Shown: positions 1-7,627 of the stretch, in pieces
Position numbering within the stretch: the first letter of the stretch is position 1
Layout: every line of letters begins with the position of its first letter
IMG/VR virus record: IMGVR_UViG_2695420382_000010
Span: 1-7,627 of that record
Source of the DNA: a virus
Lineage: Duplodnaviria > Heunggongvirae > Uroviricota > Caudoviricetes
Direction: 5' to 3' (one strand)
DNA: 7,627 nt
Translations under genes and position numbers: made by a program
The notes under the pieces: model-generated
Seen by the model: the letters and a program-made list of their open reading frames with translations, nothing else
Databases searched by the model: none
Told to the model about the DNA's origin: nothing

Positions 1-225
1 CGCATACTTAAAAGCCCTGCTAATCGGACTGATGTCTGATGCCATTCCGAAAGCACACAAGACCGAAGCAATAAACCTCCAGTCCGTTCTGCTTATCTTC
101 GATTCATGACAGCCAATCATCTTTGCCAGACCGCGCTGGGTAAGCGTTGACAGGTTGATGAGTAAATCTGTTTCTGCGCGATCAACATCGCGCTGTGATA
201 GTTTGCTGTAACTTGTTTGTTCCAT
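1..225 (-). CDS. cII: CII-like transcriptional activator, partial (start codon at 225-223; the gene runs off the left edge of the window)
   Basis: Not in the ORF track because it is open at the window edge. Minus-strand translation from ATG (complement of 223-225) gives MEQTSYSKLSQRDVDRAETDLLINLSTLTQRGLAKMIGCHESKISRTDWRFIASVLCAFGM..., 75 codons with no stop. The pattern resembles lambda CII (helix-turn-helix with ...SQISRW..W...) and the gene sits downstream of cro, nutR and a tR1-like hairpin as in lambda. Confidence 0.6.
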   Translation of the reverse strand, partial: MEQTSYSKLSQRDVDRAETDLLINLSTLTQRGLAKMIGCHESKISRTDWRFIASVLCAFGMASDISPISRAFKYA

Positions 226-234
226 TTCTTACTA
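203..234 (+). promoter_or_regulatory. PRE-like CII-dependent promoter: TTGC-N6-TTGT direct repeat flanking the -35 position, then a 12-nt spacer and the -10-like TTACTA; it would drive antisense-to-cro transcription toward cI
   Basis: TTGC at 203-206, 6-nt spacer, TTGT at 213-216, then 12 nt and TTACTA at 229-234. The architecture matches lambda PRE (TTGC-N6-TTGC), and as in lambda it overlaps the cII start codon on the opposite strand. Confidence 0.4.
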
Positions 235-242
235 TTTCCATA

Positions 243-277
243 GGTAAATAATCACTAATACTCATCTTTCGATGAGT
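243..277 (-). terminator. tR1-like hairpin between nutR and cII (7-bp stem, GAAA loop, A/U-rich tail)
   Basis: Minus-strand RNA reads ACUCAUC-GAAA-GAUGAGU (plus 260-277) followed by AUUAGUGAUUAUUUACC. The position matches lambda tR1. The U-tract is imperfect, so this may be a partial or Rho-assisted terminator. Confidence 0.3.
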
Positions 278-289
278 GCTTAATTAGTT

Positions 290-324
290 ACCGCGTTGTC
301 GGCGGTGCAGATTGATAAAGAGCG
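290..324 (-). promoter_or_regulatory. nutR: boxA plus P22-type boxB hairpin
   Basis: On the minus strand, boxA is CGCTCTTTA (plus 316-324) and boxB is ACCGC-CGACAAC-GCGGT (plus 290-306; 5-bp stem, 7-nt loop). It lies immediately downstream of the cro stop, as lambdoid nutR does. The boxB matches the P22 nutR type as I recall it. Confidence 0.6.
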
Positions 325-334
325 GATCCGCTTA

Positions 335-550
335 TTAAGCGGCTTTGTGTTCAGGCGGGAACACGTCATCAAGACTGACTTTTGCGCCTAACTTGTTTAG
401 GCACGCAACAAGAGCACGGCATGTTTTAAGGTCTGGGAAGCGACGACCAGATTCCCAATGTCCGATAGCTCCCTGTGTGCATCCAACTGCCTTAGCAAGT
501 GTTGTTTGAGAGATATTCAGTGACTCTCGATATTTTCGTAGGTTGCTCAT
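335..550 (-). CDS. cro: Cro-like HTH repressor (71 aa)
   Basis: Track ORF 335..721, trimmed to the internal Met at 550 (MSNLRKYRESLNISQTTLAKAVGCTQGAIGHW...) because a GGAGGG Shine-Dalgarno sits 4 nt upstream and the longer form would run through the operator region and the cI start. It has an XRE-type helix-turn-helix and is divergent from cI across an operator region. Confidence 0.85.
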   Translation of the reverse strand: MSNLRKYRESLNISQTTLAKAVGCTQGAIGHWESGRRFPDLKTCRALVACLNKLGAKVSLDDVFPPEHKAA

Positions 551-661
551 ATGCCCTCCATAGTAACCATGAAACAATAATACGATATGTACTTTTGGAA
601 TGCAAACAAAAAATACATCTTGTGCATGGATGGTTTTAGTACAGAGCGTAATAATAAGGAT
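551..661. promoter_or_regulatory. OR-type divergent control region between cro and cI (operators, PR and presumably PRM)
   Basis: 110-bp AT-rich spacer between divergent cro and cI starts. It contains the 19-mer at 577-595 that is shared (17/19) with the PL region, and an ACAAGATG core at 614-625 that recurs in OL at 2918-2925. Confidence 0.6.
577..605 (-). promoter_or_regulatory. PR-like sigma70 promoter for cro (-35 TTGCAT, 17-bp spacer, -10 TATTAT)
   Basis: On the minus strand, TTGCAT is the complement of 600-605, the spacer is 17 bp, and TATTAT is the complement of 577-582. The predicted leader of about 20 nt carries GGAGGG before the cro ATG. Confidence 0.5.
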
Positions 662-1321
662 ATGAAAATGAAATGGTATGAACTGGCTAGATCCAGAATG
701 AAAGAGCTCGGCATAACTCAAGAGAAGTTAGCTGAAGAGCTTGGTATGACGCAGGGTGGAATTGGTCACTGGTTGCGCGGATCTCGTCATCCATCTCTTG
801 ACGAGATTGGTGTGGTGTTTAAATACCTTGGTATTGATAACGTCTCATTCAACCACGACGGTACATTCTCACCTGTTGGCGAATACTCATCTGCCCCCGT
901 TAAAAAACAATATGAGTACCCTGTTTTTTCTCATGTTCAGGCCGGGATGTTCTCGCCTGAGCTTAGAACCTTTACCAAAGGTGATGCGGAGAGATGGGTA
1001 AGCACAACCAAAAAAGCCAGTGATTCTGCATTCTGGCTTGAGGTTGAAGGTAATTCCATGACCGCGCCAACAGGATCCAAGCCCAGCTTTCCTGACGGAA
1101 TGTTAATTCTCGTTGACCCTGAGCAGGCTGTTGAGCCAGGTGATTTCTGCATAGCCAGACTTGGGGGTGATGAGTTTACCTTCAAGAAACTGATCAGGGA
1201 TAGCGGTCAGGTGTTTTTACAACCACTAAACCCACAGTACCCAATGATCCCATGCAATGAGAGTTGTTCCGTTGTGGGGAAAGTTATCGCTAGCCAGTGG
1301 CCTGAAGAGACGTTTGGGTGA
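662..1321 (+). CDS. cI: CI-type prophage repressor (N-terminal HTH domain plus C-terminal S24/LexA-like autocleavage-dimerisation domain), 219 aa
   Basis: Track ORF 587..1321, trimmed to Met 662 (MKMKWYEL...; Met 668 is an alternative) with AAGGA at 656-660. The C-terminal ~130 aa ([14 protein letters not shown]...[10 protein letters not shown]...[12 protein letters not shown]) match the lambda CI C-terminal domain as I recall it. The N-terminal domain is different and carries the helix-turn-helix [22 protein letters not shown]. Confidence 0.9.
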
Positions 1322-1452
1322 TGGATGGAAAAGTACGCCGGGCGTAGAGTGACCAGCAGATTTAAAGCCGACATTCATTGCATTCAATGCAAAAAGAAAC
1401 TTTATGCACTTTAACGATATAATGACTTACGCCATATATAACGGATTGATAT

Positions 1453-2283
1453 ATGAAACTTAATTTTTACGCCTCCTATCAACAAAACGGTAAGGAACGT
1501 TTTCCTATTGATTTGGTGTCAGGCTTATCCGAACAGGTAATCAAAGCAAAAAACAATGCCTTCGAGATTGATGATTACTTTATATTTGCTCATCACATTA
1601 GCAGAGAATGTTATTTAATAACAAAAACATATGACTCAGACTTGGTTAAAAGGGTCAATAAAACCACGCTCTCAGTCGATGAACTCAAAAACGTATTAGG
1701 CAGTGACGAAACGCTAGCGTTTCCATCATTCCTGTTGATCAAAGATGGCGTCATTGGTTATGCCTGCACTCAGCACGGGCCAAGAGTTCGTGAGCTTGAA
1801 ATTTACTTATCTAATAAATTGAACATAACAAAACCATTCAAGCTATGTTTAGAACCTCTGATGAGAGACGTAACTAGGGATGATGCTCTCGACATGGAGT
1901 TCATCGGTAGAACAACCTTAAGAGTTGAGTCTGGATCCAAGCTTTTGTCTCCTTTGCTGAGAGCTGCCGGGATCGAAACCATCGAAGAAGAGCTTCTTGA
2001 AGGTGTGGAAATAACAATAAAACCAAAAAGAATGAGAAATATCAGCAACATGTCCAAGGAGCTGATTCGTAATGCCGATGATTCTCATAGTGACATACAT
2101 CTTAAAGCGAAGGAGTACGCAGCTGATTTGCTAACTGACTACTACCTTTCAAGCAAGGGGCACATCAGTGCCAACATTTACAAATCGACAAATGAAGAAA
2201 TTGCAGAGGAAATGGAAATTTGCTACATAAGAATGAAAAATGTTATAATGAAAAGTTATAAAGATTTTTGTGAAGACGAGTAA
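1453..2283 (+). CDS. rexA: RexA homologue (abortive-infection/exclusion sensor component), 276 aa
   Basis: Same strand as cI and immediately downstream of it. Its length is close to lambda RexA (279 aa) and it shares blocks recalled from lambda RexA: FPSFL, EPLMR..T.DD, FIGRTT, I.IKPK, YLS.KGH.SA, EIAEEM. Confidence 0.85.
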   Translation: MKLNFYASYQQNGKERFPIDLVSGLSEQVIKAKNNAFEIDDYFIFAHHISRECYLITKTYDSDLVKRVNKTTLSVDELKNVLGSDETLAFPSFLLIKDGVIGYACTQHGPRVRELEIYLSNKLNITKPFKLCLEPLMRDVTRDDALDMEFIGRTTLRVESGSKLLSPLLRAAGIETIEEELLEGVEITIKPKRMRNISNMSKELIRNADDSHSDIHLKAKEYAADLLTDYYLSSKGHISANIYKSTNEEIAEEMEICYIRMKNVIMKSYKDFCEDE

Positions 2284-2313
2284 GAGTGAATACCTAAGGG
2301 TAAGGGAGGGCGT

Positions 2314-2751
2314 ATGAGAGAGCACAAAATCGTTCCCGGCGTATTGCTATTCGCTTTACCAATACTTTTCACTATTGTCGTTTACTGCATTTTCCGTAGC
2401 CTTACCTCAGCAATTTCGTTCACCGAGCACAGAGACGCGCTGGGAGCAGCTATATCTTCATATGCAGGGACCACTATCGCAATACTCATTGCCGCGTTGA
2501 CGTTTGTCATAGGCATCAGAGGAAAAAACATGCAAAAAGTAAAGGCATACGGATATATGACATCTGTCATTATTCTGTATGCACTGACCTTTGCGGAGCT
2601 TGGCATTGTTTTTTTTATGGGGTTATTTTTAATGGCCACAAGCAAGCAACCAATTGCTTTGTTGCCATCCTTATCGATCGGCCTATCAGCTTCATCAATG
2701 ATGCATATAAGCATCATACTTTTCCAACTCCTAAAATTCTCAAATAAATAA
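2314..2751 (+). CDS. rexB: RexB homologue (small polytopic inner-membrane protein partner of RexA), 145 aa
   Basis: GGGAGGG Shine-Dalgarno at 2303-2309. The protein is hydrophobic with about four predicted TM segments and shares blocks recalled from lambda RexB: MPGV, H/EHRD.LGA..SSYAGT.IAILIAALTF, YGYMTSV.I.YAL.F.ELG. It is followed directly by an intrinsic terminator. Confidence 0.85.
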   Translation: MREHKIVPGVLLFALPILFTIVVYCIFRSLTSAISFTEHRDALGAAISSYAGTTIAILIAALTFVIGIRGKNMQKVKAYGYMTSVIILYALTFAELGIVFFMGLFLMATSKQPIALLPSLSIGLSASSMMHISIILFQLLKFSNK

Positions 2752-2753
2752 CG

Positions 2754-2780
2754 ACCCGGCCTCAGCGCCGGGTTTTCTTT
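2754..2780 (+). terminator. tIMM-like Rho-independent terminator ending the cI-rexA-rexB operon
   Basis: GC-rich hairpin ACCCGGC (2754-2760), loop CTCAGC, GCCGGGT (2767-2773), followed by the T-tract TTTTCTTT, starting 3 nt after the rexB stop. Confidence 0.8.
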
Positions 2781-2960
2781 GCCTCTCGAACGCCCACCTA
2801 AAACACATAACAAATTGTATTTATTGAAAAATTGATAGATACAACTTGCTAAACAGTGCAATTCTGATCCCTCACCTACCAAACAATGCACCCCTGCAAA
2901 AAATAAATCCATAAAATACAAGATGGTATAAAAAACCAACAACATTTAGAACATTTTGTA

Positions 2961-2989
2961 TTGACTCAATAAAGTACACATCGTACTAT
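2961..2989 (+). promoter_or_regulatory. PL-like sigma70 promoter (-35 TTGACT, 17-bp spacer, -10 TACTAT) with an overlapping operator
   Basis: TTGACT at 2961-2966 and TACTAT at 2984-2989. The downstream CATCAGCAGGACGCA resembles the lambda PL transcript start. The segment 2971-2989 is 17/19 identical to the PR spacer and -10 segment, suggesting OL1. Confidence 0.55.
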
Positions 2990-3035
2990 TTAGCCATCAG
3001 CAGGACGCAGGAAGCCAAACGGAACAGATTGGCAG

Positions 3036-3069
3036 GCTCTTTAACTTCGATGGGGCGCTGACAAAGCGC
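3036..3069 (+). promoter_or_regulatory. nutL: boxA plus P22-type boxB hairpin
   Basis: boxA GCTCTTTAA at 3036-3044 and boxB GCGC-TGACAAA-GCGC at 3055-3069, lying between PL and the N start. The boxB matches the P22 nutL type as I recall it. Confidence 0.7.
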
Positions 3070-3188
3070 AAACAGATATCAAACGAGATGGGTTTGGCGG
3101 TGATGTGAATTGCAGCTGCAACGACAGCAACCAGAAGATCAGCACCTGGCGCATCACCACCAAAGCCATTTCACATGAGGAAAACATC

Positions 3189-3497
3189 ATGACGGTAATC
3201 GTGTACGGAAAATCAACATTTGCAGGAAATGCCAAAACTCGCCGTCATGAGCGGCGCAGAAAGCTGGCTATCGAGCGTGATGCCATCTGCAACATCATCG
3301 ATTCGATCTTCGGCACAGACAGCGAGGAACCTGTTCAGAAAGACACGAGAAAGCGTTTAAGCCTTTCTGAAAAAGCAATATCACTCGGAAGCCTTCGCTG
3401 CAAGAAGGCAGATGAATACAGTGGAAGTATTTGCCTGCCAAACATAGCCATTTACGCGGCAGGCTACAGGAAATCCAAACAGCTGACAGCAAGATGA
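3189..3497 (+). CDS. N: N-type transcription antiterminator, P22 gene 24-like, 102 aa (arginine-rich motif near the N terminus)
   Basis: Track ORF 3105..3497, trimmed to Met 3189 with GAGGA at 3176-3180. The start MTVIVYGKSTFAGNAKTRRHERRRKLAIERD contains the arginine-rich boxB-binding motif and matches the P22 gp24 N terminus as I recall it. It is the first gene after PL and nutL. Confidence 0.85.
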   Translation: MTVIVYGKSTFAGNAKTRRHERRRKLAIERDAICNIIDSIFGTDSEEPVQKDTRKRLSLSEKAISLGSLRCKKADEYSGSICLPNIAIYAAGYRKSKQLTAR

Positions 3498-3555
3498 CTT
3501 GTGTTGGTCGCCAGAAAATGAAATTAGACAGCAAACCACTTATTTGAGGTGAGAT

Positions 3556-4026
3556 ATGACAAAATCATGGAGCGTACCGTTTCCTGAATCAGAAACTGAA
3601 CATGATGGAATGCCTGTTTTCTGGAGATTCCAGGCGACAGTTGAAGAAGATGGGATAAAAATATTCGCACTTCAATATATAGCTTTTCATCAGACAGAGC
3701 ATTATGCATGGTTGGTTCCTGCGCATTGGATTGTTAATTTTAAACCAGCACCAAATCAGTGGTTACAGGAATGGAAACAAAGGAGAAATAGATATGCAAT
3801 TAAGAAAGTAGCAAAAAATGCAGAAAGATCTTTTGCATTCCCAACGAAGAAACTTGCTATTGAAAGTTTATTGCGTCGAAAAAAATACCATTTGGTGAGG
3901 ATCAAACAAGATTTGGCTGTCGTATCAACTCTTGTCGATGGGATGAAGAATATTGATACATCAACACCAGATATTGAATATAACTTTGGACACAACCAAG
4001 AAACAGAAAATTGGGTATTTTATTAG
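3556..4026 (+). CDS. Hypothetical protein, 156 aa; AT-rich orphan gene in the N-cIII slot
   Basis: Track ORF with GAGGTGA Shine-Dalgarno at about 3546-3552. GC content is about 30-37% against about 50-55% in cI and cIII. It has an aromatic-rich N-terminal half and a basic then acidic C-terminal half. I recognise no family. Confidence 0.7.
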   Translation: MTKSWSVPFPESETEHDGMPVFWRFQATVEEDGIKIFALQYIAFHQTEHYAWLVPAHWIVNFKPAPNQWLQEWKQRRNRYAIKKVAKNAERSFAFPTKKLAIESLLRRKKYHLVRIKQDLAVVSTLVDGMKNIDTSTPDIEYNFGHNQETENWVFY

Positions 4027-4101
4027 TACAAATAAGCACTGTGTATCCATTCCAACGAGTGAATACACGGAGCAATTTAAAGCGTAAATAAGGAGCACAC
4101 C

Positions 4102-4266
4102 ATGCAATATGCCATTGCAGGGTGGCCTGTTGCTGGCTGCCCTTCCGAATCTTTACTTGAACGAATCACCCGTAAATTACGTGACGGATGGAAACGCCTT
4201 ATCGACATACTTAATCAGCCAGGAGTCCCAAAGAATGGATCAAACACTTATGGCTATTCAGACTAA
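4102..4266 (+). CDS. cIII: CIII (inhibitor of FtsH-mediated CII degradation), 54 aa
   Basis: Not in the track because it is under 60 aa. ATG at 4102 with AGGAG at 4091-4095. It translates to MQYAIAGWPVAGCPSESLLERITRKLRDGWKRLIDILNQPGVPKNGSNTYGYSD, which matches lambda CIII as I recall it. Confidence 0.8.
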   Translation: MQYAIAGWPVAGCPSESLLERITRKLRDGWKRLIDILNQPGVPKNGSNTYGYSD

Positions 4267-4348
4267 ATTCACTATCGCCACTTTTATTGGCGATGAAAAG
4301 ATGTTTCGTGAGGCCGTCGAAGCCTACAGAAAATGGAGGTCAAAATGA
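4235..4348 (+). CDS. kil: Kil-like small protein (host cell-division inhibitor family), 37 aa
   Basis: This is the C-terminal part of track ORF 4109..4348, with Met at 4235 (MDQTLMAIQTKFTIATFIGDEKMFREAVEAYRKWRSK) preceded by AGGAG at 4221-4225. It overlaps the cIII 3' end out of frame. The N terminus matches lambda Kil as I recall it. Confidence 0.6.
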   Translation: MDQTLMAIQTKFTIATFIGDEKMFREAVEAYRKWRSK

Positions 4349-4533
4349 TTCCGGTAGAGCTGGCGAAAACTCCAGAGTTAAGTCGATTAAAAAGAGAATA
4401 TCACATTGCTGAGGCTCGTTACTGGCGTAAAGCGGGAGATAAATCAAAGAAACAACTTTGTTTATGGCAGGCACAAAGAGAGCGCATGAATGAGCGCGAG
4501 TTTCTTTCCGTCCCATCCGAATTACCATTCTGA
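4345..4533 (+). CDS. Hypothetical small basic protein, 62 aa
   Basis: Track ORF 4333..4533, trimmed to Met 4345 with GGAGG at 4335-4339. Its ATG overlaps the kil stop (ATGA), which suggests translational coupling. The protein is Arg/Lys-rich: MIPVELAKTPELSRLKREYHIAEARYWRK... Confidence 0.5.
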   Translation: MIPVELAKTPELSRLKREYHIAEARYWRKAGDKSKKQLCLWQAQRERMNEREFLSVPSELPF

Positions 4534-4541
4534 GGCAAATT

Positions 4542-5198
4542 ATGGGAACTGCGACATTAATACTCGGTGAATCTGGTACCGGAAAATCAACCAGTTTAAG
4601 AAACTTACCACCAGAAAAAACATTAATCATACAGTGCATAAACAAACCGCTACCATTCCCATCAAGTGATTGGGTTAAAATAAGCAAGGAAAACAATAAC
4701 GGGAACATATACAGAACAGATAATACTGAAAATATTGTAAGGGCACTAATTAATGCTCCGCATGAAATTGTAGTTATTGATGATTATCAGGCTGTGATGG
4801 TTAACGAACTAATGGGTAAATGCAATGAGAGAGGATATGACAAATTTACCTCGATAGGGAAAAACGCATGGGATGTGTTCAGGGCTGCTGGTGAAGGGGC
4901 AGACACTCGGAGAGTTTATATTCTGGCACACACGCAAACTGATGATTTTGGCTATACACGAATGAAAACCGTCGGAAAACTAGTCGATTCGACACTTGTT
5001 CCTGAAGGTTATTTCACTATCGTGTTAAGAACTCACGTACAGAACGGAAAATACTCATTTTCCACCCAGACAAACGGGAGTGATTGTTGTAAAAGTCCGG
5101 TTGGGATGTTTGATAGTCAGTTTATTGATAATGATTTGTACGAAGTAGATAAAAAAATATGCTCTTACTATGGGTTTGAAAAAAATGAGACGTCTTGA
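4542..5198 (+). CDS. P-loop NTPase, RecA-core-like; putative Sak4-type phage recombination ATPase, 218 aa
   Basis: Walker A GESGTGKST at residues 9-17 and a Walker B-like IVVIDD near residue 77. The size and position, where lambdoid phages carry their recombination module, fit Sak4-family single-strand-annealing ATPases. The family assignment is inferred, not confirmed. Confidence 0.7.
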   Translation: MGTATLILGESGTGKSTSLRNLPPEKTLIIQCINKPLPFPSSDWVKISKENNNGNIYRTDNTENIVRALINAPHEIVVIDDYQAVMVNELMGKCNERGYDKFTSIGKNAWDVFRAAGEGADTRRVYILAHTQTDDFGYTRMKTVGKLVDSTLVPEGYFTIVLRTHVQNGKYSFSTQTNGSDCCKSPVGMFDSQFIDNDLYEVDKKICSYYGFEKNETS

Positions 5199-5790
5199 GG
5201 TATCCGGCGAGAGATTTGGCAATTTAGTTGTTATTGGTGATGCAGGAATGCGTGGTACTCAAAGGTTGGTAAACTGTGTGTGTGACTGCGGAGTAGTTTG
5301 TGTTAAACAGCTTGGCAACCTCCGTTCAGGGCACACAAGAAGTTGTGGTTGCTCACGCTCATCTACAACAAAAGCAAGAAAAAACAAACATGGCATGTAT
5401 GGAACGCCAACATACAAGTCATGGTCTTCAATGTTAACAAGATGCTTCAATGAAAGAAATAGTAAATACAAACACTATGGAGGAAGAGGAATAACTGTTT
5501 GTGAACGGTGGCTGGACTTTAAATTATTTTTCGCTGATATGGGAAAAAGACCAGACGGAACTACATTGGGAAGAATTGATAACAATGGTAATTACGAACC
5601 ATCAAATTGCGAATGGCAGAAAAGTATCGAGCAAGCAAGAAATAAGAGTAATACCGTATTATTTAAATTCAATGGAGTGCTGGCAACAATTTCAGAGCAC
5701 TGCGAAAAAACTGGATTAAACCCAAGCACGGTAAGAAGCAGGATTTACACATATCATTGGTCTGTAGACAAGGCCTTATCAAAAGGATAA
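5185..5790 (+). CDS. Cys-rich putative nucleic-acid-binding / homing-endonuclease-like protein, about 201 aa (start ambiguous: 5170 or 5185)
   Basis: Track ORF 5170..5790. It overlaps the end of the upstream ATPase gene. It has an N-terminal Cys cluster (NCVCDCG...SGHTRSCGC), a central YKSW..M..RC.N....Y..YGGRGI.VCERW block and a GRIDNNGNYEPSNCEW block, which I recall from free-standing phage endonuclease-like genes, and a C-terminal HTH-like segment. Confidence 0.65.
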   Translation: MRRLEVSGERFGNLVVIGDAGMRGTQRLVNCVCDCGVVCVKQLGNLRSGHTRSCGCSRSSTTKARKNKHGMYGTPTYKSWSSMLTRCFNERNSKYKHYGGRGITVCERWLDFKLFFADMGKRPDGTTLGRIDNNGNYEPSNCEWQKSIEQARNKSNTVLFKFNGVLATISEHCEKTGLNPSTVRSRIYTYHWSVDKALSKG

Positions 5791-5794
5791 AAGC

Positions 5795-6382
5795 ATGAGC
5801 AACGTGATTTTTACTTATAACGAAGAAGCAGCACTGACCGCAGGGCAAGGTGGTTTTATTAACGAAACTGGCGCTCATATCATTACCATTACTGAAGCAG
5901 AACTAAAGCAATCAGAGAAAGGAGCCAAATTTATTGAGTTTTCTGGAGAATCCGACGACGGACGTAAAATCCAATATCTTAGCGTTTGTGTTCAGAAAAA
6001 TGACGGAACGGAAAACAAGTTTGGTGCAAACGTCGTTCATGCCATGATGGGGTGTGTTGGGATTAAGCAGTTAACGCAACATATGGTTTCCGCCAGTAAA
6101 TTTGTTGCTCCTGAATTTCATGGAAAGAAAATCGGGTTAGTGCTCCAGAAAGTATTAACCACAAACAAAAAGACTGGCGCAGACAGCTACCAGATGGAAA
6201 TACGCATCCCGTTTATTGCACAAACAGGTCAAACCCTTAAAGAAAAGTCGGAAGGCAAGCAACCAGAAACTATCGCCAACATGGTTGCCAGCCTCAAAGA
6301 TAAAGACAATCGCTCTAAAAACGTAAGCCAGAATCATGCAGATGATTATGGTTACAGCCAGAACGATTACCCTCCTTTCTGA
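5795..6382 (+). CDS. Hypothetical protein with an SSB-like acidic/aromatic C-terminal tail (candidate ssDNA-binding partner of the ATPase), 195 aa
   Basis: AAGGA Shine-Dalgarno about 9 nt upstream. The C terminus ...DDYGYSQNDYPPF resembles the SSB / gp2.5 tail (D-rich, ending in P-F). The body has no recognisable canonical SSB OB-fold signature, so the function is a hypothesis. Confidence 0.6.
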   Translation: MSNVIFTYNEEAALTAGQGGFINETGAHIITITEAELKQSEKGAKFIEFSGESDDGRKIQYLSVCVQKNDGTENKFGANVVHAMMGCVGIKQLTQHMVSASKFVAPEFHGKKIGLVLQKVLTTNKKTGADSYQMEIRIPFIAQTGQTLKEKSEGKQPETIANMVASLKDKDNRSKNVSQNHADDYGYSQNDYPPF

Positions 6383-6405
6383 TTACTGAAAATAAGGCTC
6401 CCATT

Positions 6406-6702
6406 ATGCCAGCGCCTCTGTATGGTGCGGATGACCCGCGCAACTGCTCCGGTAGCTCCAAGGCGGAGGTGCTGGATAAATTCAGGAAAAACTACGACCG
6501 GATAATGTCGCTACCGCAGGAAACGAAAGAGGAAAAGGAATTTCGCCATTGTATATGGCTTGCAGAGAAAGAAGAACGCGAGCGAATTTACCAGACATCA
6601 ATCCGACCATTCCGCAAAGCCACATATACCCACTTCCCTGAATATATCGACCCGCGCCTGCGTAATTACCGCTCACGCTATGGCGCTATCAGTAATGACT
6701 GA
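6406..6702 (+). CDS. Hypothetical protein, 98 aa
   Basis: Track ORF with AAGG about 9 nt upstream, co-directional with the operon. The protein is charged and Arg-rich. Its size and position are compatible with a P22 Abc-type anti-RecBCD protein, but the sequence is not recognised. Confidence 0.55.
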   Translation: MPAPLYGADDPRNCSGSSKAEVLDKFRKNYDRIMSLPQETKEEKEFRHCIWLAEKEERERIYQTSIRPFRKATYTHFPEYIDPRLRNYRSRYGAISND

Positions 6703-6712
6703 GGAATTAACA

Positions 6713-7003
6713 ATGAAAACAATGAAGCTAAACATCGACCTCGGCAAATACGTTATTACCGGAACCAAACACGACCTGATTCTTAGCGAAAGAGGAATTA
6801 TCAAAGAAGGTGAGAATGCAGGGAAAGAAACACTAAGTCGTATCGGTTATTACAGCAAGTTTGAGCATCTGGTTAAAGAGTTATGCAACCGTGAAATCCT
6901 GTTATCTCAGGCGCAGACGCTACAGGATATTCAGCAGCATATCGAAACTTTAGGTGTGTCACTTAGCATGGCCGTTGACCAGTTCGTTGAGAGTAAATCA
7001 TGA
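6713..7003 (+). CDS. Hypothetical protein, 96 aa
   Basis: Trimmed from track ORF 6560..7003 to Met 6713, with GAGGA at 6701-6705 straight after the upstream stop. Sequence [22 protein letters not shown]... Confidence 0.55.
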
Positions 7004-7167
7004 GAGGACTTGCATACAATCCCGGCATTCTTCCGGCAGAAATGATTATTCGCCAGCGCGTAAAGCCAATGCCATCGAGAGAGGAATTGCTTAAGAGAAA
7101 GAGTTTCGGTTCTGTTAATGACAACAAATATCTGAATGCGATGTGGCGCAAAGGAGGCAACCAGTGA
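7000..7167 (+). CDS. Hypothetical small protein, 55 aa
   Basis: Not in the track because it is under 60 aa. Its ATG overlaps the upstream stop (ATGA) and its stop overlaps the downstream GTG start (GTGA). It translates to [55 protein letters not shown]. Support is positional only. Confidence 0.35.
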
Positions 7168-7627
7168 GCAAGATTGACTATCAGGCACTGCGTGCCAAGG
7201 CAGAAAAAGCAACTAAAGGAAGCTACATCGTAGGGCATACATCTGTTAATCGGCACGGCAATTTAACAGGAGTTTTTGTTTGTCAAAAATGGAAAGGAGA
7301 ACCCGGTGGTGTGATTGCGGAATGTCATGTTAACTGCCTGGTTGAAACAGATGTTCAGGCTTATGCAAACGCTGAATTTATTGCTGCTTTTAATCCAAAT
7401 GTTGCGCTGGCACTACTGGATGAACGGGAAAGAAACCTGCAATACATCAAAAGCCGCGATCAGGAGAACGAGGAAATTGCGCTAACGGTAGGGAAGTTGC
7501 GTGTTGAGCTGGAAGCAGCAGAGAACAACCTTATTGATAGTGAATGCCATGTTGCTGAACTGGAAGAAGCGCTACGCGATAAGCAGGCGTTACTTGAAGC
7601 CTCAGAAAAGCGCATAGCAGAACTGGA
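7164..7627 (+). CDS. Coiled-coil protein, possibly Ea22-like, 3' partial (GTG start; open to the end of the window)
   Basis: Strong AAGGAGG Shine-Dalgarno at 7151-7157, 6 nt before GTG 7164. The frame stays open for 154 codons to the window end. The C-terminal part visible is heptad-like and rich in Glu/Leu/Ala (...[43 protein letters not shown]). The N terminus [19 protein letters not shown] resembles Ea22-like prophage proteins as I recall them. Confidence 0.5.

Follow-up and report, generated by a model that had tools for sequence, protein, structure and literature searches.

In phage lambda, the repressor CI has an N-terminal domain (NTD, residues 1-92) followed by a linker (residues 93-131) in which cleavage takes place at Ala111-Gly112, and rexA is read from the same transcript as cI. 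In phage 434, Cro is a single repressor-like helical helix-turn-helix (HTH) domain, homologous to the repressor head, which competes for the same operators. A repressor type that joins lambda-like and non-lambda parts has been known since about 2000 in the Shiga toxin (Stx) phage VT2-Sakai (VT2-Sa, Sp5) and its relatives. The high homology of VT2-Sa CI to lambda CI in the C-terminal domain (CTD) and its low homology in the NTD are credited to Fattah et al. 2000 (PMC10742460). The repressor of the O104:H4 Stx2 phage (BAA2326) and the CI of the Llarena ‘Clade I’ Stx phages are described as about 61% identical overall to lambda CI and as combining HTH_3 and Peptidase_S24 domains with a divergent right operator region (OR) (PMC5977221, PMC8951638).

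Here we describe cro, OR and cI, which together fill positions 335-1321 of a 7,627-nucleotide stretch of Caudoviricetes DNA (positions 1 to 7,627 of IMG/VR record IMGVR_UViG_2695420382_000010; the whole stretch is called the window). An earlier note, made from the letters of this DNA, had proposed that its CI fuses a lambda-type CTD to a different DNA-binding domain whose recognition helix nearly matches that of Cro. Our analysis indicates, with a probability of about 0.9, that this region is a lambdoid prophage's immunity module, its lysis/lysogeny switch, and that it is of the VT2-Sakai type, with a mosaic cI. The mosaic, the type of Cro and the operators have all been described before. By description, the BAA2326 and ‘Clade I’ repressors resemble the CI of the window in being lambda-related with changed specificity.

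The CI repressor is a mosaic joined in its interdomain linker

A BLASTN comparison of the window with lambda 34500-39500 returned one strong block, in which positions 911-1322 align with lambda 37637-37226 at 98.3% nucleotide identity (7 mismatches, 0 gaps). Base by base, identity to lambda stays at background level up to position 910 and is near-perfect from 911, so that similarity is lost within one codon; neither BLASTN nor the base-by-base comparison found nucleotide similarity to lambda in the head-coding DNA. The Tyr codon that opens YEYPVF begins at position 911, and from this motif to the C terminus all 136 of 136 residues are identical to lambda CI, as the earlier note had expected. 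Relative to lambda, the identical block stops exactly at the cI stop codon (1322). The residues before YEYPVF number 83 when counted from ATG 662, 18 fewer than the 101 of lambda, and 19 of them (23%) match. The note had called the N-terminal 90 amino acids different and shorter than in lambda; both descriptions stand, with the length corrected to 83 (ATG 662) or 81 (ATG 668). The head lacks the N-terminal arm region of lambda CI and is indeed non-lambda, but it is not another class of domain: like the lambda head, it is an HTH_3 domain, and a divergent one.

The junction corresponds to lambda Tyr101 (mature numbering), a residue of the 93-131 linker that precedes the Ala-Gly cleavage site by 10 positions. 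The abrupt nucleotide break thus places the recombination junction where the note had suspected it, between the domains. Downstream of it, the match to Peptidase_S24 (PF00717) spans profile positions 1-116 of 116. The cleavage site VQA94-G95MF aligns with lambda Ala111-Gly112 within the identical segment, and the catalytic dyad GNS132M / FK175K aligns with lambda Ser149 / Lys192 (ATG 662 numbering). Compared with the CI of lambda and of the lambda-immunity phages HK97, SfI, mEp234 and HK544, the linker end, the Ala-Gly bond, the Ser/Lys dyad and the dimer/tetramer interface are identical. With an S24 domain, a scissile bond and a dyad in its sequence, CI is a self-cleaving repressor of the LexA/lambda-CI type, and the identity of 136 of 136 residues to a lambda segment that has this activity suggests that RecA would stimulate its autocleavage and so induce the prophage.

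Three ATG codons, at 626, 662 and 668, could start cI, all in frames that end at 1321 on the plus strand. Database versions of the protein have 231 amino acids (ATG 626) or 217 amino acids (ATG 668). ATG 662 suits a lambda-like leaderless transcript from the maintenance promoter PRM, with the -10-like AATAAT (650-655) 7 nucleotides upstream, and the best Shine-Dalgarno spacing is that of ATG 668 (AAGGA at 655-659).

Cro is a single HTH_3 domain related to the CI head

Both proteins match HTH_3 (PF01381; Table 1). In a BLASTP alignment, Cro and CI share 22 of 62 residues (35%) without a gap (42 bits, pairwise E 6e-11), and the two 28-residue HTH segments that the note had read from the letters are present in the sequence and identical at 15 of 28 positions. 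Helix 2 of CI (ATG 668 numbering) comprises residues 18-25 (QEKLAEEL) and recognition helix 3 residues 29-37 (QGGIGHWLR); in Cro, the corresponding residues are 15-22 and 26-33 (QGAIGHWE). In the ungapped register, 6 of 8 residues of helix 3 (QGGIGHWL in CI) are identical, compared with 16 of 58 elsewhere. In phmmer comparisons, with scores scaled to the size of a PDB search, Cro reached 30.4 bits against its own CI head, 19 bits against P22 c2, 14 bits against the 434 repressor, 7.7 bits against the lambda CI head and 5.5 bits (E 2e2) against lambda Cro. This contrast in scores shows that the resemblance of Cro to the CI head exceeds the general HTH_3 background.

A single-sequence AlphaFold2 (AF2) model of Cro, with a confidence score (pLDDT) of 84, contains helices at residues 3-11, 15-22, 26-33, 41-54 and 60-63 and no strands. 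In a Foldseek search of the PDB, the best match was 28tn (template modelling (TM) score 0.84, 50% identity), followed by the P22 c2 repressor head (TM 0.75, 1.2 Å root mean square deviation), the 434 repressor head 1pra (TM 0.65) and then other XRE domains. The entry 28tn (‘lambda repressor-like protein from Escherichia coli’, released on 2026-03-11) has a sequence identity to Cro of about 50% (E 4.5e-17). It probably represents Cro from a related type of prophage immunity and could be used as an experimental template for the present one. The AF2 model of the CI head (pLDDT 80-95) has four helices, and the helix pattern of Cro is the same with an offset of 3 residues.

Judged by its predicted structure, Cro is an HTH_3/XRE-type, 434-Cro-like protein with a five-helix, repressor-like fold. 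It does not belong to the lambda Cro family: Pfam returned only HTH families, the score against lambda Cro was negligible and the model has no strands, whereas lambda Cro has an alpha+beta fold. The heads of 434 and P22 c2 are structural matches to this Cro, but they are distant in sequence (14-19 bits) and their operators differ in sequence. The homology of Cro and the CI head at the level of fold and family is not in doubt, as the superposition of the Cro model on the P22 c2 and 434 repressor heads also indicates. Two outcomes that the earlier note had named as fatal to its proposal, a CTD unlike that of lambda and unrelated folds for Cro and the CI head, were both looked for and neither was found.

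Six candidate operators lie in two regulatory gaps

An inverted repeat in OR gave the operator pattern ARTAC-N5-GTAYT, which differs from the TATCACCGC-type 17-mers of lambda. Allowing at most one mismatch, the pattern occurs 5 times in the whole window, and 4 of these 5 matches (579-593, 638-652, 2948-2962 and 2973-2987) fall within the two regulatory gaps, which total 531 bases: OR and a second control region between the terminator-like hairpin on the rexB side and N. In shuffled versions of the gaps such matches occurred 0.08 times on average, and 4 were never reached in 20000 shuffles. Two weaker sites, at 612-626 with 2 mismatches and at 2915-2929 with 3, bring each gap to three sites (Table 1). 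When the whole window was scanned with up to 2 mismatches, enrichment was unclear (17 matches compared with 9.2 +/- 3.0 expected, with 2 of 200 shuffles reaching 17), so the operator signal emerges only from the combination of at most one mismatch and location.

All six sites coincide in position with ‘putative operators’ in the GenBank annotation of Stx1 phage AP005153, and the predicted rightward promoter PR coincides with the ‘putative major rightward promoter’ annotated there. The supplement of PMC10742460 gives six VT2-Sakai operator oligonucleotides, and the six sites agree with these in position and share their half-sites. Where the sites depart from the VT2-Sa operators, they do so chiefly in the central spacer and in OL3, the weak site of the left operator region (OL), and in AP005153, 683R2 and phi458 the half-sites are likewise kept while the central spacers vary. 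The only electrophoretic mobility shift data found, from the same source, concern lambda CI, which has micromolar affinity for VT2-Sa operators (PMC10742460). The earlier note had expected Cro and CI to read the same half-sites, rather than behaving as in lambda. The six ARTAC sites at OR and OL fit the first part of this statement; the second part fails, because lambda Cro and CI also share their operators, and the real contrast with lambda is therefore the fold of Cro.

The centre of OR2 would lie near -43 of PRM, a lambda-like placement as far as the predicted promoter shows. Acidic residues of CI presumably align with the lambda positive-control positions Glu34 and Asp38.

The locus belongs to the VT2-Sakai immunity group

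Comparison of the head with known immunity types identified it as near-identical to the VT2-Sakai type. The cro-OR-cI cassette is present, with at least 80% of 335-1321 covered, in 62 phage records, and the part from cro to the CI head in 64, which include VT2-Sakai, the Stx1 phage AP005153, Stx2 II, Nil2, 2851, 1717 and YYZ-2008 as well as the non-Stx phages vB_EcoP-683R2, phi458, Dewey and Louie. Nucleotide identity over this part is 99.0% to vB_EcoP-683R2 and 94.1% to VT2-Sakai. The Cro protein is identical to that of AP005153 (71 of 71 residues) and to that of phi458, and the CI proteins of the window and AP005153 differ by 4 substitutions over 217 residues, all of which lie outside helices 2 and 3; the match of the AP005153 cassette to the window is the same as that of the VT2-Sakai records. 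Gene order, the junction to lambda-type CTD DNA, the six operators and the promoter layout are shared with this group. Near-identity of head and Cro, together with the same set of OR and OL operators, places the locus, by its sequence, in the VT2-Sakai immunity group. Lambda immunity does not describe it, with a head 23% identical to that of lambda, a Cro that scores 5.5 bits against lambda Cro and sites of the ARTAC-N5-GTAYT type.

The exact CI protein has already been deposited, as ‘CI protein’ of Shigella flexneri and as ‘LexA family transcriptional regulator’ of E. coli, and is found on 5 public contigs; the exact Cro protein is found on at least 1000. In the GenBank record of VT2-Sakai, the annotation of cI reads ‘similar to CI repressor of bacteriophage lambda’, and that of cro reads ‘similar to C2 of bacteriophage L’.

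A related arrangement occurs in the Klebsiella phage phiKp_30 (LC768498.2), in which positions 701-1088 hold cro, OR and about the first 20 cI codons at 96% identity. The homology ends near position 728 of the window and no cI is annotated, so that phiKp_30, a sewage phage, resembles a derivative from which cI was deleted and which is presumably obligately lytic.

Specificity parts have been exchanged around a conserved core

A prophage of E. coli FDAARGOS_943 encodes a lambda-type Cro (66 amino acids) and a 237-residue lambda-type CI, has lambda OL operators, and is collinear with the window from exactly 911 to 2916, just before OL. Nucleotide identity is 97.3% over the CTD part of cI, 94.3% over rexA and 93.6% over rexB, and no identity was detected over OL-nutL (2917-3188). 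Since this prophage carries the CTD-rexA-rexB core with lambda parts, the parts that determine specificity have been swapped around a core that was kept, with cro, OR and head at one flank and OL at the opposite flank. Such exchange is what the classical modular view of lambdoid phages describes.

AP005153 departs from lambda at the position equivalent to 911, and because it breaks at the same position, the linker junction is either ancestral to the family or a joint that has been reused. The CTD allele of the window is nearest to that of lambda (98.3-98.5%), whereas the VT2-Sakai/AP005153 allele stands at 93.3-93.4%. Between 911 and 999 there are 0 differences from 683R2 and 2 from lambda, and between 1000 and 1315 there are 4 from lambda and 21 from 683R2. 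This pattern, drawn from few informative sites, suggests a second, more recent crossover inside the CTD-coding DNA.

A CTD at least 95% identical to that of lambda was found in 98 phage records. Those inspected bear either a lambda or a VT2-Sakai head, and no third head type on a lambda-identical CTD was seen among them. More distant phage CTDs fall into bands of 81, 65, 61 and about 47% identity. P22 c2 belongs to the lowest band, its CTD being about 47% identical to that of the window. In the 65% band (TL-2011c, PA8, P13803), relatedness to lambda is spread along the protein, without an identical CTD block.

Features of the window

The list of open reading frames (ORFs) and the Pfam and PHROG family scans show a lambdoid early region of standard type across the window (Table 1). 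The layout cI-rexA-rexB-OL-N with a divergent cro is that of lambda. The RexA/RexB pair is divergent in sequence, yet it lies between cI and OL as in lambda. In the VT2-Sakai-group records examined (AP005153, Nil2 and 683R2), rexAB was not found between cI and OL: AP005153 and Nil2 have unrelated ORFs in this place, and in 683R2 hardly anything separates cI from N. The N protein is 23.5% identical to lambda N, and the GACAA loop of the putative nut hairpin resembles that of P22-type boxB. The recombination module at 4542-6702 (Sak4-like, HNH-like, SSB-like and Abc2) is other than lambda Red.

Table 1 Predicted genes, operators, promoters and other features of the window.
Feature	Position	Strand	Basis and remarks
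cII-like activator gene, 5' part, running off the left end	1-225	-	PHROG 191 CII-like transcriptional activator, E 2e-28
Putative nutR	324-290	-	boxA CGCTCTTTA 324-316; hairpin ACCGC-CGACAAC-GCGGT 306-290
cro, 71 amino acids, HTH_3 (XRE-type), all-helical	335-550	-	ORF; Pfam HTH_3 E 4.2e-12
OR intergenic region	551-661		About 110 bp, between divergent cro (-) and cI (+)
Predicted PR for cro	577-606	-	-35 TTTGCA 606-601, 18-nucleotide spacer, -10 TATTAT 582-577; consensus scan 9/12
OR1, putative operator	578-594		Core AATACGATATGTACT, 0 mismatches; overlaps PR -10; counterpart VT2-Sa OR1 AAGTACATATTGTATTT in reverse complement
OR2, putative operator	611-627		Core AATACATCTTGTGCA, 2 mismatches; abuts predicted PRM -35, centre about -43 from A662; counterpart VT2-Sa OR2 ATGCACAATGTGTATTT in reverse complement
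Predicted PRM	-35 627-632; -10 650-655 (AATAAT)		Start near A662; sequence reading and AP005153 annotation
OR3, putative operator	637-653		Core AGTACAGAGCGTAAT, 1 mismatch; overlaps predicted PRM -10; counterpart VT2-Sa OR3 TATTACGCTCTGTACTG in reverse complement
cI, 5' part: non-lambda HTH_3 DNA-binding domain and first part of linker	662-910	+	Pfam HTH_3 E 8e-11
cI, 3' part: lambda-identical linker end and S24 self-cleaving/oligomerisation domain	911-1321	+	Pfam Peptidase_S24 E 6.2e-29
rexA-like gene	1453-2283	+	Pfam RexA E 1.4e-45; 41% amino-acid identity to lambda RexA
rexB-like gene	2314-2751	+	Pfam RexB E 8e-39; 49% amino-acid identity to lambda RexB
Terminator-like hairpin after rexB-like gene, bidirectional	2753-2774		Terminator scan
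OL3, putative operator, weak	2914-2930		Core AATACAAGATGGTAT, 3 mismatches; position of VT2-Sa OL3 TACAACGCTTTGTATTT in reverse complement
OL2, putative operator	2947-2963		Core AGAACATTTTGTATT, 1 mismatch; overlaps -35 of leftward promoter PL
Predicted PL driving N	2961-2989	+	TTGACT 2961-2966, 17-nucleotide spacer, TACTAT 2984-2989; consensus scan 9/12
OL1, putative operator	2972-2988		Core AGTACACATCGTACT, perfect palindrome, 0 mismatches; overlaps PL -10
Putative nutL	3036-3069	+	boxA GCTCTTTAA 3036-3044; boxB hairpin GCGCTGACAAAGCGC 3055-3069
N gene	3189-3497	+	Pfam N_peptide E 4.5e-41
Sak4-like single-stranded DNA annealing ATPase	4542-5198		PHROG 2872, E 4e-82
HNH-endonuclease-like ORF	5170-5790		Overlaps Sak4-like gene
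SSB-like/DUF669 protein	5795-6382
Abc2, P22-type anti-RecBCD protein	6406-6702		Pfam E 7e-59

Alternative explanations

We considered whether the two halves of cI could have diverged without recombination, from one ancestral gene with a constrained CTD and a head evolving fast under diversifying selection for new immunity. Such a history has in its favour that the two heads, both HTH_3, are still weakly alignable (23% identity, with ELG..QE..A...GM.Q.G.G kept, and a match to the lambda repressor NTD at E 7e-4) and that the CTD similarity of phage repressors is graded, at 100, 81, 65, 61 and 47%. However, differences in rate affect amino-acid replacements and not synonymous sites, whereas the CTD DNA is lambda-identical at 98.3% of positions, synonymous sites included, and drops to background within one codon at 911; moreover, the same CTD-rexAB core occurs with either head and either OL. 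Because DNA identity steps in this way from 98% to background, simple rate differences between the domains are excluded, and we rejected gradual divergence as very improbable. More improbable still is that the lambda-identical segment is an artefact of contamination by a lambda or cI vector, or of chimeric assembly. Laboratory constructs often carry lambda cI, and relative to lambda the segment stops precisely with the cI stop codon, but it has 7 differences from lambda, runs on collinearly into rexA/rexB as in the FDAARGOS_943 chromosome, and has a junction that recurs in the 62 phage records, with the exact CI protein on 5 contigs. This explanation was also rejected, and a crossover in the linker DNA accounts for the mosaic.

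For the likeness of Cro to the CI head, what has to be weighed is convergence on a common operator, or a generic HTH_3 signature, in place of specific paralogy within the immunity module. Identity is concentrated in helix 3, which selection for one half-site would hold alike regardless of ancestry, and many of the residues shared (Q, LA, G, and G after helix 3) are consensus positions of HTH_3 in general. Against this, the score of Cro on its own CI head is set apart from those on solved HTH_3 proteins, which are about 20 bits or less except for the near-orthologue 28tn, and from the low score on the lambda CI head; and the alignment runs ungapped over 62 residues with the helices in register. 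We regard convergence as unlikely, and paralogy of Cro and the CI head within the module as the better account.

Several points weigh against assigning the region as we do. The cI start is ambiguous among 626, 662 and 668. OL3, with its 3 mismatches, is a poor match and the least certain of the six sites. The centres of the operators are spaced by 33 and 26 bp at OR and by 25 and 33 bp at OL, compared with 24/23 and 24/20 in lambda, so that pairwise cooperativity between OR1 and OR2 in the lambda style should not be assumed despite the identical cooperativity domain. Binding of the operators by their cognate CI and Cro would follow from annotation and the logic of the sequence. Finally, a single-sequence AF2 model of full-length CI has pLDDT below 50 for residues 68-217 and is unusable for the CTD, and conclusions on the CTD fold therefore rest on its identity to lambda.

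Proposed working of the switch

In the arrangement we propose, a crossover in the linker DNA at position 911 joined a non-lambda cassette of cro, OR and head to lambda-type CTD DNA, and the specificity parts (cro, OR, head and OL) move as two segments that flank the CTD-rexA-rexB core. CI is a two-domain, LexA-like self-cleaving repressor whose HTH_3 head would bind the six ARTAC-N5-GTAYT sites, three of them in OR, in the cro-cI gap, and the other three in OL, ahead of N. CI dimers on OR1/OR2 and OL1/OL2 would shut PR and PL, and CI at OR2 would probably stimulate its own promoter, PRM. The C-terminal half would supply the dimerisation, cooperativity and RecA-stimulated autocleavage of lambda CI, with the cut at Ala-Gly parting head from CTD and inducing the prophage. 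Cro, as a single HTH_3 domain, would compete for the operators of CI and flip the switch as in phage 434, presumably occupying the same sites with a preference opposite to that of CI, as in the lambda and 434 paradigms.

Since repressors of the lambda type and of the VT2-Sakai type have the same CTD, they might form mixed dimers or oligomers in double lysogens and so couple switches that are otherwise independent; in addition, cooperativity might join OR2 and OR3 and not OR1 and OR2. We consider this speculative and rather improbable. If true, mixed oligomers might underlie the ‘cross-immunity’ of lambda and VT2-Sa attributed to Fattah et al. 2000, and pairing of OR2 with OR3 would hold repressor levels low, which would fit the ‘hair-trigger’ idea for Stx phages.

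Significance

The locus is a clean example of modular evolution in lambdoid immunity regions; this is ordinary for lambdoid phages and adds little as a discovery. For annotation, it can be recorded as a lambdoid prophage of VT2-Sakai immunity with a lambda-allele CI CTD and a divergent RexAB pair. The repressor type it carries is the one that governs induction of the medically important Shiga toxin phages of the VT2-Sakai group.

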